Of a stretch of 64,000 nt of DNA, positions 29,507 to 53,790 are shown piece after piece. Source of the stretch: Candidatus Enterousia sp. (lineage in GTDB: Bacteria; Pseudomonadota; Alphaproteobacteria; Rs-D84); contig JAZNVR010000030.1 in the NCBI GenBank assembly GCA_045592905.1, positions 6,029-70,028 of the forward strand. The letters run 5' to 3'. The number at the start of each line of letters is the position of its first letter. The first letter of the stretch is position 1. The notes beneath the pieces were generated by a model. The model ran no database searches. It was given only the letters and a program-made list of their open reading frames with translations, and was not told where the DNA came from. Made by a program: the position numbers and the translations under genes.

Positions 29507-31786
29507 TTAAAATAAAGACCATGCAGGCTTATTATTTTGCCCCCCTGCGGAATTACAATAGCAAACACCATTATTCCATGCAGTACTTGTTAGTATACAA
29601 TTATTTTTCTGTGCATGTTGTGAACAAATCTGTGCACACGTATCAGGTACCATTGCATTTTGTTCGTATGCTGCACATGGTGTTTGTTCTGGTTTTGTTT
29701 CCGGTTTATTTTCCACTGCTGGTTTCTGCTTTGGCTTTGCTGTAACACCAGAAATCAAATCATGTGATACGATTGGTTTTGCACCCTCTGGATTACAATA
29801 GCAATTAACCCCATCATGACTTGTATTTATAATTTCACATCCATTTTTCACTGCAAAGCCAGAACACAACGATGGACAATTAGATGCACTCATAGAAAAC
29901 AGTGGTGTTTCCGGACATGGATTTTTCTTTTCTTCCACTCTTTTTCTTGGCGACAATGCACTACAGAAACATTGTTTTGTATCTGCATAATAAACATTAT
30001 CACGTGTCAATTCACATCTGTTGCTATCTGCAAATTCATCGCAATATTTATCACATGCAGACTTGCTATCTTTTTCAGATTCATGTTCATTACATGCAGG
30101 CCATCTTACCTCTGGTTTAGTTTCTACGACTGGTGCAGACACCTTGGATGTCAAATCCCAATCCTTGACAGGTTCAGTATTTGCAGGATTGCAATGACAA
30201 TTTACACCATCATGACTGGTACTTTCTATCAAACAACTATGTTCTGCTGCAAAACCATTACACAATGCTGTACAATTGGATGCAGACATTGATACAATCG
30301 TTGTTTCCGGACATGGATTTTTCTTTTCTTCCACTCTTTTTCTTGGTGCCAATGCATTACAGAAACATTGTTTTGTATCTGCATAATAAATTGTTCCACG
30401 TACCAATTGGCACTTTTTATCTGCAGCATAATCTGTGCAGTGTGCATTACATGCTGCTTCAGTATCTTGTACAGATTCTGATTCAGGACAAGAAGGCAAC
30501 TGAACTTCTACCTTTGGTTTTCTAAGATCGCTTGGCACAGGATTACATATGCATTGACCTGTTTGTTCATTTTCAATTGGATCATCGGTCAATTTACAAT
30601 TGTTTTCATATGCATAACCTTCGCACTTGCCATAACACATTCCAGCAGTATATTCAGAACGTTCAAAAACCTTGCGTTCACAATTAACAGTTGGTGCGAC
30701 ATATTTCTTTGCTGTATCACATGCCTTGCCCCCAGCTGGCCAATCTTCAACTATCTGGTATGCCGAACATGCAGAAACACAATGTCCTTTGGATACACCA
30801 TTTTCTATGGCCAAATAGAAATTATCTCTACATGACTTTGCGACACATTTACCATTTTGCCACCAAGACTGTAAAGCACCCATTATTGCTTTGGTTTCTG
30901 CATCTGTACACATATCATTATTTTTTCTGACGGGTTTATCATCTTGTACAACATCGCAATAATCAAAGTATGGGAATACATTATCATCACGTACACATGT
31001 TTTCTTGGACGCATTATTTGTCTGAACGTCTTTACATGTTGCAACCTTCCACTGTCCATTTACACATGTTGCAGATTCTGCACCAGGAATACTGGCAATA
31101 TATGCAGCCTTTGCACCTTCATCACATGCATTTACATCACCACATGTGTTGTTATTTATCGGATTTTCTGGTTTGGTAACAGGTGCACAATGCAATACAT
31201 AATTAATCGTCTGACCATTTAATGTACATGTCTCTGCTGTACCCTGATAACCCGTTTTACATTCAGACGGATACCAAATATTATTAACACATACACCATC
31301 TACGGCACCAGGTGCCATTGTTGCCAACCAATCAGTCTTTGACATTACACATTGTTGTGAACCACATGTGTTCGCCAGCGGACTGATAACATTATTATTA
31401 CCACCATTATTATTACCACCACCATTATTATTATTACCACCATTATTATTTATTGGATTAACCTGTACATTTTTTTCATTAATTTCTGCATTAACACGTC
31501 TTATTTCTTTATCTAAATCAGATTTTGACTGTTCTGCAGTTGCAATTTTTTCATCATATTTCTTTAACGCAACCGCCTCACCAATATTTGCACCGATACC
31601 AATGGCACTGACACCCAACGTTGTAATACCAGCGATTTTCAATCCCTTGGTGTTTTTTTGACATTCTTCCAGTTTTGCAATCTTATCTAACTTTTGCTTT
31701 GTCAGGTTTGCAATCTTGTCATCCAAATAGTCTGCAGATGCAACCATTGGACATACAGATAAAATACATGCAAATATCTTTTTCAT
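29507..31786 (-). CDS. Secreted Cys-rich mosaic protein (759 aa): signal peptide, coiled coil + glycine-zipper module, Asn/Gly linker, and repeated C-x3-C...C-x-C-N modules
   Basis: Signal peptide MKKIFACILSVCPMVASA (ATG at 31786, RBS AAGGTG). The N-terminal module LEECQKNTKGLKIAGITTLGVSAIGIGANIGEAVAL matches the upstream ORF and 62135-63196. There is a 132-aa internal tandem duplication. The protein ends ...PAWSLF. Confidence 0.7.
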   Translation of the reverse strand: MKKIFACILSVCPMVASADYLDDKIANLTKQKLDKIAKLEECQKNTKGLKIAGITTLGVSAIGIGANIGEAVALKKYDEKIATAEQSKSDLDKEIRRVNAEINEKNVQVNPINNNGGNNNNGGGNNNGGNNNVISPLANTCGSQQCVMSKTDWLATMAPGAVDGVCVNNIWYPSECKTGYQGTAETCTLNGQTINYVLHCAPVTKPENPINNNTCGDVNACDEGAKAAYIASIPGAESATCVNGQWKVATCKDVQTNNASKKTCVRDDNVFPYFDYCDVVQDDKPVRKNNDMCTDAETKAIMGALQSWWQNGKCVAKSCRDNFYLAIENGVSKGHCVSACSAYQIVEDWPAGGKACDTAKKYVAPTVNCERKVFERSEYTAGMCYGKCEGYAYENNCKLTDDPIENEQTGQCICNPVPSDLRKPKVEVQLPSCPESESVQDTEAACNAHCTDYAADKKCQLVRGTIYYADTKQCFCNALAPRKRVEEKKNPCPETTIVSMSASNCTALCNGFAAEHSCLIESTSHDGVNCHCNPANTEPVKDWDLTSKVSAPVVETKPEVRWPACNEHESEKDSKSACDKYCDEFADSNRCELTRDNVYYADTKQCFCSALSPRKRVEEKKNPCPETPLFSMSASNCPSLCSGFAVKNGCEIINTSHDGVNCYCNPEGAKPIVSHDLISGVTAKPKQKPAVENKPETKPEQTPCAAYEQNAMVPDTCAQICSQHAQKNNCILTSTAWNNGVCYCNSAGGQNNKPAWSLF
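29740..30530 (-). repeat. Tandem ~396-bp (132-aa) in-frame duplication inside the Cys-rich gene
   Basis: The anchor ccggacatggatttttcttttcttccactctttttcttgg occurs at 29911 and 30307. The protein copies read ...YYADTKQCFC(N/S)AL(A/S)PRKRVEEKKNPCPET...SHDGVNC(H/Y)CNP. Confidence 0.85.
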
Positions 31787-31796
31787 AATTTTCACC

Positions 31797-51642: not shown

Positions 51643-51648
51643 AAAACA

Positions 51649-53790
51649 ATGAAAAAATTATTTTTATCATCTTTGCTAGTTATATTATCAATACCTGCCA
51701 TCGCAGCAGATGCCCCAGGATTGGCGGCACGACCTGTGCCCACACTAACTGTTGGGCCATCTGCCATGGATACACCAGTAAATCTAAATCTGAAACCAGG
51801 CAGTCCTTTTGCATCTGCAAAAACACCAGATGAAGCATGGCAAATATTTGAATCAGAAACACAAAAAATACTGGATAAAGTAAAAAATAAACTGAGACAT
51901 TCTGAATATAAAAAGTTATCCGCATTACGTGACGAAATGCTGGCCGAAAAGCTAAGTGCAACTGAACTGAATAAAAAAACAACGACAGAAAAGACAAAGA
52001 AAGAAAAAACAAAGAAAGAAAAGAAAGATAAAGACAGCAAAAACGATACCGAAGAAGACGCAAGCAAGGTTGTTACACAACGTAAATTATCCAAAGAAGA
52101 ACAAGAAAAGAAAATTTCTGAATTACGTGACAACGCAACCGCAATGAAAGAAAAAGAACAATCGTTGGCAAACAGAACATTGGGTGCTGCTGCGATTGGT
52201 GCGACTGGGATTGGCGGAATGCAGTTGGCATCTGCAATGTCTGAACAACAGGCAGACGCTGATGCGGAACAAGCCATGCGTGCATATCTGGCAACATTTA
52301 CATGTAATTATGCCGACGGCAAATATTTCAAGGGTGGCGAAAAAGACATTGAATTACCAGGCAGTGCAGAATTGATAAACCTGTACAGCGAATATGTTAC
52401 ATTGGCAAATGATTTGAAAACCCGCAAAACAGCATTGGGAATAAAACCAGGTATTGAATCAGAAAGTATTCTGGACGGTGCCACATCTGGTCTGTATGAC
52501 GATGTTGGTATGGGCAAAACAACTGGTGCATATGCATCATTGGCACGTGCATTACAAAATCCAGATGGCGAAGATGCCAAAATGTGGGCTGCACAAAAAG
52601 AAGAAACGGCAAAAAAACTAAAAACAGGTGCAATTACGGCTGGTGTCGGTGCAGTGGGTGGTCTGATTGGAAATATTGCCATTAACGCCAGGGCCCCAAA
52701 AGAACGCTCGGCTGAAATAAATGCAAAATACGAAAAACTGAAAAAAGAAATTGTAATAATACAAAAAAAGATTAATCGTCTGCCAAAACCAAAATGCGAA
52801 GATTTTAATGCAACAGGTGTATGGGATGACTGTAAATGTAACGAAGCAAATCATATTTTCTCAAACAGTCGTTGCGTAGATTGTGGTCAAGGATACAAAG
52901 CCATCGGGAACGAATGTGTTCTAAAAGAATGTGAATTAACCGGTGATGTTGTTACAGGTCTATATGATTGCGAATGTCACCCAGATGCAGAACAGCAAGG
53001 AAATGACTGTGTATGCAAACTGACTGGTATGAAAAAAGAAAATTATTGTGAATGCGTTGATAACGCAACTAAAAATGCACAAGACGTATGTGAATGCAAT
53101 GACGGTTACGAAGAATCAGATGGAAAATGCGTTCCAAGGGCACAATGTCAATTAAGCGATACATTGGCAGATATAGAACAATGTCAATGCGTGGAAAATG
53201 CAAATGATGATGATAATGACAGTCTTTGCGAATGCAATGACGGCTATGAAGAATCAGATGGAAAATGCGTTGAAATCGTTGCCGAAAATCCAAAACCAAT
53301 CGTAATCAATGTGCCTGCGGATACATTCTTTAACAGTGGGGATTATACAATATCCGATGAAAACAAACAACAATTGATTGCTGATATTATGGATACAATC
53401 AAAGCACAGGCACCAAATGAAGATGCAGCAACACTGTTATCGTCATCATGCATAACAATAACCGGATACGCAGACAGATCTGGGGCACACTTAAAAAACG
53501 AAAGATCAAACCAAAGATTGTCCGAAAGACGTGCACAAACGGTCGCAGACATCTTGAAACAAAAAGCCAAGGATGAATTACAAGACGGTGTTAATCTGCG
53601 TGTATCGGGTCGTGGCCATACAGATTGTACCGAGGCACAATATCCAACACCAACAGATTATGCAAAGTGCCGTCGTGTGGATATTTCTATAAATTCTGGA
53701 ACATGTAATGGGTCAACCCCAGATTCAGGGCAAACATTACAAAATGTAATAGATGGTGTTGCGTCTGTAATAAACAGACCACAACAATAA
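51649..53790 (+). CDS. Secreted/anchored protein (713 aa) with a Lys-rich coiled coil, two glycine-zipper segments, EGF-like Cys units and a C-terminal OmpA-like peptidoglycan-binding domain
   Basis: Signal peptide MKKLFLSSLLVILSIPAIAA. Glycine-zippers TLGAAAIGATGIGGMQLASAM and GAITAGVGAVGGLIGNIAI. Cys units CEDFNATGVWDDCKCNEANHIFSNSRC and CECNDGYEESDGKCV x2 (138-bp offset). OmpA_C-like ITGYADRSG...NQRLSERRAQTVADIL...CRRVDISI. Confidence 0.75.
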   Translation: MKKLFLSSLLVILSIPAIAADAPGLAARPVPTLTVGPSAMDTPVNLNLKPGSPFASAKTPDEAWQIFESETQKILDKVKNKLRHSEYKKLSALRDEMLAEKLSATELNKKTTTEKTKKEKTKKEKKDKDSKNDTEEDASKVVTQRKLSKEEQEKKISELRDNATAMKEKEQSLANRTLGAAAIGATGIGGMQLASAMSEQQADADAEQAMRAYLATFTCNYADGKYFKGGEKDIELPGSAELINLYSEYVTLANDLKTRKTALGIKPGIESESILDGATSGLYDDVGMGKTTGAYASLARALQNPDGEDAKMWAAQKEETAKKLKTGAITAGVGAVGGLIGNIAINARAPKERSAEINAKYEKLKKEIVIIQKKINRLPKPKCEDFNATGVWDDCKCNEANHIFSNSRCVDCGQGYKAIGNECVLKECELTGDVVTGLYDCECHPDAEQQGNDCVCKLTGMKKENYCECVDNATKNAQDVCECNDGYEESDGKCVPRAQCQLSDTLADIEQCQCVENANDDDNDSLCECNDGYEESDGKCVEIVAENPKPIVINVPADTFFNSGDYTISDENKQQLIADIMDTIKAQAPNEDAATLLSSSCITITGYADRSGAHLKNERSNQRLSERRAQTVADILKQKAKDELQDGVNLRVSGRGHTDCTEAQYPTPTDYAKCRRVDISINSGTCNGSTPDSGQTLQNVIDGVASVINRPQQ

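Follow-up and report, generated by a model that had tools for sequence, protein, structure and literature searches.

Within a 64,000-nucleotide (nt) stretch of the genome of Candidatus Enterousia sp. (GCA_045592905.1, contig JAZNVR010000030.1, positions 6,029-70,028 of the forward strand; hereafter the window), a locus of ~24 kb, or roughly 3% of a genome of under 1 Mb, encodes a set of exported, cysteine-rich proteins between rpoA (28345-29373, minus strand) and a gene for an FKBP lipoprotein (53873-54268). The core of this locus, comprising the proteins D861, E729 and F776 together with the more distant K286 and L512 (open reading frames, ORFs, are named by a letter followed by the length of the product in amino acids, aa), appears to represent a previously undescribed superfamily in which long α-helices would be stapled by invariant cysteines. 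We propose that the locus may encode a lineage-specific, disulfide-braced, exported scaffold of the Enterousia envelope or surface, a reading whose chances of being right and of being wrong we judge to be about equal; it draws on the observed export signals (called by a heuristic), paralogy, conservation, purifying selection, cysteine parity and an OmpA domain.

The organism is a gut anaerobe of the order Rs-D84, a widespread and uncultured lineage of the guts of humans, ruminants, birds, horses, rodents and termites. Rs-D84 genomes are smaller than 1 Mb and lack a tricarboxylic acid cycle and a respiratory chain, and members of the order are presumed to need partner cells (PMC12306168). We found no descriptions of the proteins discussed here in the literature on Enterousia, on Rs-D84 or on cysteine-rich proteins.

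The original prediction for this locus, made by reading the sequence, counted 15 ORFs in the interval, of which twelve were said to have an export start and to be rich in cysteine. The numbers of ORFs and of export starts hold, and a simple hydrophobicity/AXA heuristic applied to the N-termini finds a signal peptide or anchor in A762, B126, D861, E729, F776, G253, I1246, J190, K286, L512, M919 and N713. The claim of cysteine-richness stands for nine of these, with cysteine contents of 7.5% (A762), 4.3% (D861), 4.9% (E729), 3.7% (F776), 4.3% (G253), 7.0% (K286), 4.1% (L512), 4.6% (M919) and 3.8% (N713), but not for B126 (one mature cysteine), I1246 (6 cysteines in 1246 aa) or J190 (5 cysteines), which are exported without being cysteine-rich. 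Taken together the nine contain 280 cysteines in 5811 aa (4.82%), a 5.6-fold enrichment over the 30 other proteins of the window (0.86%).

The core superfamily and its conservation

D861 (32975-35560, minus strand), E729 (35582-37771, minus strand) and F776 (38271-40601, plus strand) are true paralogs (BLASTP 1e-46, 2e-19 and 1e-10) and have 18 invariant cysteines in common. The compact K286 (46484-47344, plus strand) aligns with the F776 core when its profile is compared with that of D/E/F by hhalign (E=2e-4, 186 columns), the conserved cysteines being collinear, and its 20 cysteines, the number originally counted, are all conserved. L512 (47355-48893, plus strand) contains a unit of the form C-x6-C-x4-C-G-x-D-[FY]-x2-C that is common to K286 and D/E/F (profile E about 1e-4 to 1e-3). 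These comparisons suggest that K286 and L512 are distant relatives of the trio, visible at the profile level only, and that A762, G253, M919 and N713 have modules in common with no overall homology. G253 was considered as a further relative of D/E/F and rejected, the alignment being confined to the signal peptides. The locus had been described as a family of paralogs throughout, which is true of D/E/F, true of K286 and L512 at the profile level, and reduces to shared modules for A762, G253, M919 and N713. Of the motifs on which that description was built, the head motif C-x-D-A-Y-x2-C-M-D-x-F-C, predicted in three proteins, is found by regular expression once each in D861, E729 and F776; the CG-containing unit predicted in at least four is present in its strict form in D861 (twice), E729 and L512 (twice), but in F776 the unit reads CGKDYVHC and is preceded by a longer spacer, and K286 has a non-CG variant.

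A profile of D/E/F matches 960 database proteins, the named ones all being 'hypothetical protein' from metagenome-assembled genomes (MAGs) labelled Alphaproteobacteria bacterium. An exhaustive hidden Markov model search of 1.84 billion representative proteins identifies, at E<=1e-3, 955 clusters of the superfamily (clustered at 50% identity); 432 of them also reach E<=1e-30, and none of the 955 bears a name. Neither Pfam nor NCBIfam contains a family that scores above threshold for D861, E729, F776, K286, L512 or 45 long, diverse superfamily members, and sequence profile searches of PDB with the D/E/F and K286 alignments reveal no relative. A Foldseek search of PDB and BFVD with a structural model of F776 gives nothing at E<=0.001, the only matches being insignificant ones to generic helical proteins. 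The family had been called unrecognised at the outset, and for the core this is borne out by all of these searches; matches to characterised families occur at the periphery of the locus, confidently for an OmpA-like domain and weakly for cEGF-like and PAN/CSαβ-like units. A large superfamily is invisible to Pfam, NCBIfam and PDB.

The AlphaFold2 (AF2) model of F776, built on a 135-sequence alignment (mean predicted local distance difference test score, pLDDT, 72.8; predicted template modelling score, pTM, 0.49), has an almost wholly helical core with helices of up to 55 residues. The signal peptide is followed by a disordered S/T/R-rich region (residues 16-127), the helical core (130-607) and a cysteine-rich C-terminal domain modelled confidently as mixed α/β, and all 29 cysteines of F776 are kept in F-type proteins. 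D861 has 36 mature cysteines and terminates in C-x6-C-H-D-I-Q-M; E729 also has 36; its C-terminal part holds a glycine zipper (nt 35585-35779), and its tail reads C-x6-C-E-D-I-N-M.

Two features of the termini may be mentioned here. The C-termini of D- and E-type proteins (154 ORFs from 80 loci) all conform to C-x5-6-C-[EQH]-D-[IV]-x-M, which has the look of a signal or docking motif. At the other end, the mature N-termini of E- and L-type orthologs and of F776 (residues 1-140, nt 38271-38690) begin with A-[AV]-[VST]-R-[DSGA] and continue into a cysteine-free S/T/R-rich stretch that is long and disordered in AF2; this could be a region for binding peptidoglycan or lipopolysaccharide, or for sorting.

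Relatives of these genes are encoded on 288 stretches in a one-genome-per-species collection, and the locus statistics given here refer to the best 80 of the 288. These 80 loci come from Candidatus Enterousia and from gut MAGs labelled Alphaproteobacteria or 'Rickettsiales', with hosts that include humans, ruminants, chickens, rabbits and mice; superfamily members with termite-type MAG labels are also present. The block in which an E-D unit and an F-G unit diverge on either side of infA is kept in essentially all of the 80 loci, with infA between the two units in 77. D, E and F are present as one copy each in all 80 (four loci have an extra D-like paralog), and a G253 ortholog, found in 71 of the 80, is always directly downstream of F. 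Median ortholog identities are 61% for D, 70% for E, 51% for F and 46% for G, and cysteines are invariant in orthologs of 45-75% identity. K-L-(M)-N is conserved as well, located to one or the other side of the core block, and N-type orthologs come after L-type genes in four loci (L032, L036, L042 and L056); there is no M919 ortholog in the 80 loci. We considered whether the locus might be a horizontally acquired island and rejected this, because its GC content (0.35-0.41) resembles that found elsewhere in the window, and synteny of the block extends throughout the order.

Relative to the closest relative, the ratio of nonsynonymous to synonymous substitution rates (dN/dS) is 0.07 for E, 0.08 for D, 0.13 for F and 0.06 for K, with dS of 0.8-1.3. 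This pattern argues that the core genes are functional and strongly constrained. The diversifying adhesin repertoire that had been offered as an alternative does not fit them, with one copy each and dN/dS of 0.06-0.13, but it is plausible for the variable members of the locus, namely the A-type proteins with their variable repeat number, M919 with its lack of an ortholog, and the module inserted in L512 of this genome. Because the locus is conserved and under strong purifying selection, a central role in the envelope or in contact with partner cells is likely.

Cysteine parity, anchors and small modules

The number of cysteines in the mature proteins is far from arbitrary. All 120 database orthologs of E-type have exactly 36, D-type proteins have an even number in 68 of 82 cases (36 in 64 of them), and K-type proteins, with 20 cysteines, are even in 23 of 24. 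The G-type count is odd in 70 of 70 (exactly 9 in 69), the F-type count is odd in 105 of 120 while ranging from 24 to 43, and is odd again in 58 of 74 members of an independent set (binomial p=1e-6), and the A-type count, ranging from 16 to 59, is odd in 54 of 64. B-type proteins always have exactly one mature cysteine. L-type orthologs in the loci have 15 in six of seven (the seventh ends at a contig edge), the window copy having 19 including a four-cysteine insert, and N-type proteins are odd in four of five. The types with odd counts are operon partners: B with A, F with G, and L with N.

Where the exported proteins of a genome tend to have even numbers of cysteines, this is accepted as a sign that disulfides are formed (PMC2823432, citing Dutton et al. 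2008). The cysteines of the locus proteins, being invariant in orthologs and kept in parity, behave as disulfide cysteines would. Since parity is kept, modules appear to be gained and lost in even steps while the single spare cysteine stays, and the combination of even parity with odd counts in operon partners suggests that disulfides form within each protein and that one further, intermolecular bond links the members of each pair. The spare cysteines of A762 and B126 occupy the same position, five or six residues before a glycine zipper (LEEC-QKNTKG-LKIAG in A762 and ILKC-EKSKKG-WIAAT in B126).

A762 (29507-31795, minus strand) consists of a signal peptide, a hairpin at residues 22-110, an N/G-rich linker, cysteine-rich β modules and six tandem βαββ units of ~45 aa, with 55 mature cysteines of which one, C45, is taken to be unpaired. 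In the AF2 model (mean pLDDT 73, pTM 0.28) residues 22-110 form a helix, a low-confidence Gly-rich stretch and a second helix, which we interpret as a probable antiparallel coiled-coil hairpin with a hydrophobic glycine-zipper tip. Its small exported partner B126 (31797-32177, minus strand) has the order signal peptide, helix, single mature cysteine, glycine zipper and helix, and the zipper is invariant across genomes (KC[EQK]KSKKGW[IV]AATV[IV]GSAGVVAT..AAGVQGA).

B-A gene pairs recur in relatives, and in two of these tandem B-A bicistrons are found inside the ribosomal α operon, in the order rpsM-rpsK-(B-A)n-rpoA-rplQ followed by a D-like gene, the pairs lying between rpsK and rpoA (L081, 5652-11223; L083, 1253-7539). 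It is unusual to see genes for exported, cysteine-rich proteins within a core ribosomal operon. The position between rpsK and rpoA implies strong constitutive expression, as expected of a structural protein, and linkage to housekeeping genes with high expression is in keeping with structural proteins that are abundant and produced constitutively.

Among 64 A762 homologs residues 1-380 are conserved and the number of C-terminal repeats is variable. The six units of A762 itself (nt 29549-30682, minus strand; residues 372-749) are 43-48 aa each and give six regular-expression matches to C-x10-14-C-x3-C-x8-C-x10-14-C-x-C; their DNA contains an internal 300-nt direct repeat with 74% identity. AF2 models them as β-α-β-β with pLDDT of 85-96, placing CxxxC in the helix and CxC in the final strand. 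In PDB, a profile built on the six units picks out the PAN domain of leech antiplatelet protein (LAPP; 1i8n) at a sub-significant E=0.035, and the Foldseek matches, none of them significant, include the PAN lectin SML-2 of Sarcocystis at the top (E=0.71) and the plasminogen PAN domain (probability 0.75, E=2.3). No significant match was obtained with Foldseek for the whole A762 model, a 45-aa unit inside a 762-aa query being beyond its reach, and the Pfam PAN model does not match a two-unit A762 fragment even at E<=10. The Pfam defensin models do not match the units either (Defensin_5, E=1.3), and defensins are absent from their Foldseek and PDB matches. The units may be PAN/apple-like or like the cysteine-stabilised αβ (CSαβ) fold; these results point weakly to PAN/apple, every PAN match falling short of significance.

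Gly/Ala/Val-rich segments of the kind seen in A762 and B126 are also present in L512, in N713 (two), at the C-terminus of E729 and in a 353-aa exported protein encoded outside the predicted locus (62135-63196, plus strand). A recurring module of signal peptide, helix, cysteine and glycine zipper had been proposed; it is clear in A762 and B126 and looser in N713, L512 and E729, and it occurs in the 353-aa protein too. The Gly-zipper_Omp and Gly-zipper_YMGG models reach E=0.5 on the E729 tail (about 10.5 bits against cut-offs of 25-29) and find nothing in the other segments. The 353-aa protein has four zipper-like segments and no family match, and its gene adjoins the G-F block in three relatives (L011, L044 and L049).

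N713 (51649-53790, plus strand) contains 27 cysteines and is composed of a signal peptide, a K/E-rich region, a coiled coil with two glycine-zipper or hydrophobic segments, an EGF-like CxC array recognised by its cysteine pattern (52795-53268, plus strand) and an OmpA-like peptidoglycan-binding domain (53326-53625, plus strand). This domain, at residues 560-659, is the single peptidoglycan anchor that had been predicted, and it passes the Pfam cut-off for OmpA (PF00691; 34.9 bits against 27.2, E=2e-8). Its peptidoglycan-contact motif, read by eye, is NQRLSERRAQTV, and we take the motif of the OmpA family to be N-x2-L-S-x2-R-A-x2-V. OmpA-like domains bind peptidoglycan from the periplasmic side, and N713 and its adjacent CxC array should therefore be periplasmic.

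L512 is built from a signal peptide, two C-x6-C-x4-CG.DF..C units, an α/β core, a glycine zipper, a cEGF-like unit (nt 48426-48512) and an acidic tail, and the cEGF-like unit is an insertion found in this genome only and not in L512 orthologs. M919 (48883-51642, plus strand), a variable cysteine-rich mosaic, has a signal peptide, a β-rich N-terminal part, a repeated low-complexity region, a cysteine-rich region with four 4-cysteine cEGF-like units (nt 50929-51459) and an acidic ESDA tail. The third of the original motifs, here module c, does occur where it was predicted, once in L512, in three strict copies and one looser copy in M919, and once in N713. The module-c units of all three proteins contain C-x-C-x2-G-[FY]-x-L-x2-D-x2-C, and the signature C-x-C-x2-[GP]-[FYW]-x4-8-C occurs at two places in each of M919 and N713, in units of four cysteines and not six. 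All EGF-type Pfam models remain below threshold on the units of L512, M919 and N713 (cEGF, 15 against 26.6 bits; FXa_inhibition, 18 against 33.4 bits; EGF_2 on module-c units, E about 1), the best EGF-type E-values being 0.003-0.02, and a profile of six module-c units finds nothing in PDB.

Transcription units and neighbouring genes

Terminator-like hairpins are located 3′ of A762, D861, infA, G253/H149, J190 and N713, and delimit the units E-D, NT5C-B-A, infA, F-G, I-H, J and K-L-M-N. These positions agree with the four operons of the original prediction, except that the A/B unit probably starts at the gene for a cytoplasmic NT5C-type 5′-nucleotidase (32238-32810, minus strand) and that infA is split from F776. 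The nucleotidase (Pfam NT5C, 5e-9) has no signal peptide and is not part of the cysteine-rich set. The housekeeping gene infA (37914-38156, plus strand), encoding IF-1, is separated from F776 by a bidirectional terminator-like hairpin at 38164-38180. A762 is directly upstream of rpoA, with a strong terminator-like hairpin and a promoter-like site in between. G253 (40608/40659-41369, plus strand), the exported partner of F776, has 9 cysteines and no relative in PDB (by profile search) or Pfam; its true start is likely to be the ATG at 40659, and that of M919 is likely to be an internal ATG (MKKFLLYF). In Pfam and NCBIfam scans of all the locus proteins and of isolated modules (Pfam taken at E<=0.1), the only matches above threshold are OmpA and NT5C, along with a weak one to Ank.

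The Ank match is to I1246 (41899-45639, minus strand), a large, exported, cysteine-poor protein in which the signal peptide is followed immediately by ankyrin repeats (residues 25-92) that match designed ankyrin proteins down to 2e-12. The remainder of I1246 is large and unannotated, with a C-terminal part that looks β-rich. Its slot holds an autotransporter gene in many relatives, and the small H149 (41392-41841, minus strand; no signal peptide) accompanies I1246 in relatives. The variable protein J190 (45764-46336, minus strand) is anchored in the membrane and contains 14-residue repeats rich in N and V as well as (PQ)n/(PK)n tracts. Tandem DNA repeats are located at 45837-45952 and 46008-46175. 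J190 is present in only 5 of the 80 loci and is probably fast-evolving.

Envelope genes predominate in the window overall. A leucine-rich repeat (LRR) protein (14866-15765; Pfam LRR_4, 1e-8) has about ten near-identical 22-residue repeats (GAPKSVGGDFDCSxNQLTSL) with one cysteine each, and a classical autotransporter is encoded at 59084-61930 (Pfam Autotransporter, 9e-32). Three ORFs resemble small outer-membrane β-barrels (13625-14314, 20375-21145 and 21178-21837), the Pfam OMP_b-brl match being confident for the first and below threshold for the second, and the third being assigned by look alone. A VirB11-like secretion ATPase (54828-55823; Pfam T2SSE, 4e-23) is encoded beside a lipoprotein gene and the FKBP gene, and the window shows no further genes for type IV secretion. 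Penicillin-binding protein PBP1A is encoded at 11836-13611, so that Enterousia keeps peptidoglycan synthesis. The glycyl-tRNA synthetase (25979-27340) is a single chain of 453 aa, presumably, to judge by eye, of the homodimeric α2 type; the type expected in Alphaproteobacteria is α2β2.

Readings of the locus and comparison with known systems

The proposed envelope or surface scaffold could be assembled as follows. After Sec export the modules would fold with internal disulfides, which would explain the even cysteine counts, and one intermolecular disulfide would join each of the pairs B126-A762, F776-G253 and L512-N713. Attachment to a membrane leaflet would be through coiled-coil hairpins with glycine-zipper tips (in A, B, L, N and the C-terminus of E), and the OmpA-like domain of N713 would provide the attachment to peptidoglycan. 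The small, variable cysteine modules (PAN/apple-like or CSαβ-like in A762, cEGF-like in L, M and N) would be exchangeable and would face ligands, and the covalently braced, peptidoglycan-tethered whole may stiffen the envelope, mediate contact with partner cells, or both.

Several points weigh against this reading. The disulfides, heterodimers, location and function are all inferred, the heterodimers from parity and gene adjacency and the L-N pairing from a small sample (7 and 5 sequences), and the signal peptides are those of a simple heuristic. The AF2 models are only moderately confident (pTM 0.49 for F776 and 0.28 for A762), and the Pfam glycine-zipper models (PF13488, PF13441 and PF05433) are below threshold on the anchor segments. 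Enterousia is a fermentative anaerobe without a respiratory chain, and no Dsb-type gene is visible within the 64-kb window, to which the search was confined. Finally, none of the locus proteins has a recognisable outer-membrane translocation domain, and surface exposure is for this reason conjectural.

A bolder version of the scaffold, which we offer tentatively and regard as doubtful in its full extent, is a covalent exoskeleton or attachment apparatus with an unseen helical fold, composed of the B-A, F-G and L-N pairs and the D/E/F trio, tethered to peptidoglycan and partly expressed from the α operon. Given an anaerobe with no respiratory chain, oxidative folding would then have to proceed independently of quinone-linked DsbB, and the question is raised of the means by which hundreds of exported cysteines would be oxidised in a non-respiring anaerobe. 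Which proteins pair covalently, and through which cysteines, are testable predictions.

A surface adhesin or host-contact coat outside the outer membrane, with eukaryote-like modules binding the glycans or proteins of a partner or host, overlaps with the scaffold and differs from it in location and in having adhesion as its primary role; we think it unlikely. The weak PAN/apple-like signals of the A762 units (LAPP, E=0.035; SML-2 and plasminogen in Foldseek), the cEGF-like units of L, M and N and the ankyrin repeats of the neighbouring I1246 would all suit such a coat, but every module assignment is under its significance threshold, and the OmpA-like domain puts N713 and its EGF-like array in the periplasm. 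The variable number of A-type repeats and the genome-specific insertion of module c are what adhesins might show, yet purifying selection acts strongly on D, E, F and K, and D, E and F are in single copy. Autotransporters, an LRR protein and a VirB11-like ATPase are encoded in the neighbourhood, and members of the order have been suggested to live in dependence on partners (PMC12306168); the cysteine-rich proteins themselves have no β-barrel, autotransporter or other export domain.

It is improbable that the cysteines serve instead as ligands for metals (Zn, Fe or other) or as redox-active thiols that buffer redox stress. Such roles would be in keeping with the lack of a respiratory chain in Enterousia and with the lack of a Dsb gene in the window, and among anaerobic alphaproteobacteria only 5 of 13 have the bias toward even cysteine numbers in exported proteins (PMC2823432). 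Parity is kept, however, while cysteine number varies by tens, which a metal reading fits poorly because metal sites offer no reason for parity. There are moreover no CxxCH or His-rich ligand motifs, the spacings are those of disulfide modules (a helix CxxxC paired with a strand CxC, and C-x-C-x2-G-[FY]), and units of 28-48 residues would have little hydrophobic core without cross-links.

Secreted toxins or antimicrobials are a still more improbable explanation, in which CSαβ arrays would be combined with hydrophobic-tip coiled-coil hairpins that act like α-pore-forming toxins on competitors or on cells of the host. The CSαβ cysteine signature does occur six times in A762, in agreement with the predicted βαββ topology, but Pfam defensin models reach only E=1.3 and the arrays are fused to an anchor and not freed as peptides. 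B126 gives a weak match to α-xenorhabdolysin subunit A (NCBIfam NF033928, E=0.005), at 16 bits against a cut-off of 125; this toxin reading of B126 was dropped, as the match is gone with a profile of six B-type proteins, which finds nothing in PDB or Pfam. The location of B-A pairs in the ribosomal α operon is also more in keeping with a structural protein made constitutively than with a toxin under regulation. That the ORFs are non-functional, whether by chance, as pseudogenes or as assembly artefacts, has nothing but the lack of annotation in its favour, and is refuted by full-length orthologs in 80 independent MAGs from many host species, by dN/dS of 0.06-0.13, by the invariant cysteines and by hundreds of database clusters.

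Disulfide-braced, cysteine-rich envelope proteins are known from Chlamydia; the core fold of the Enterousia proteins and the assembly as a whole are unrelated to anything described. The chlamydial cysteine-rich outer-membrane complex (OmcB, OmcA and MOMP) is likewise made of exported, cysteine-rich envelope proteins of a host-dependent organism with a reduced genome, and its intermolecular disulfides are thought to brace the envelope, as cysteine parity would suggest for Enterousia. No locus protein matches Pfam Chlam_OMP6 or Chlam_OMP3 (OmcB/OmcA) at E<=0.1, and the core is all-α where the chlamydial complex is β-rich; unlike in that complex, peptidoglycan synthesis is kept and there is an OmpA-type peptidoglycan anchor. 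The crosslinked lattice of the original prediction, with a function analogous to that of the chlamydial complex, is accordingly a conjecture. With the OmpA, Pal and MotB domains N713 has in common its C-terminus, a genuine PF00691 member, whereas its N-terminal two-thirds consist of coiled coil, glycine zippers and CxC arrays and have no β-barrel or lipid anchor.

The A762 units resemble PAN/apple domains (LAPP, apicomplexan microneme lectins, plasminogen) in having six cysteines, a predicted C-x3-C helix on a β-hairpin and a tandem arrangement of the kind seen in adhesins, and their sequence is locally like the PAN core (sxxxCxxxC......C.........C), but they are shorter (43-48 aa), have no Pfam PAN match and are similar only at a sub-significant level. 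They also fit the CSαβ/cis-defensin signature C...CxxxC...C...CxC exactly and are predicted to be β-α-β-β; in contrast to CSαβ peptides they form an anchored six-fold array and not a free peptide, and the same signature would suit a PAN-like core. M919 and N713 have the C-x-C-x2-G-[FY]-x-L-x2-D-x2-C of EGF-like and complement C1r-like cEGF units, with four cysteines in place of six and an extra G-x-W-[DN] element. SlyB/Pcp and the Rickettsia 17-kDa antigen likewise have Gly/Ala/Val-rich hairpins, thought to enter one membrane leaflet; the Enterousia proteins differ from these lipoproteins in lacking a lipobox and in having the zipper at the tip of a coiled-coil hairpin beside a conserved cysteine.

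For the core, the Sel1-like Hcp proteins of Helicobacter are likewise exported and α-helical, with helix pairs stapled by disulfides. The Pfam Sel1 repeat (PF08238) has no match in D861, E729, F776, K286, L512 or the 45 diverse members, and compared with Hcp the Enterousia proteins are distinguished by the cysteine spacing C-x6-C-x4-C-G-x-D-[FY]-x2-C, by a much larger size and by helices of about 50 residues.

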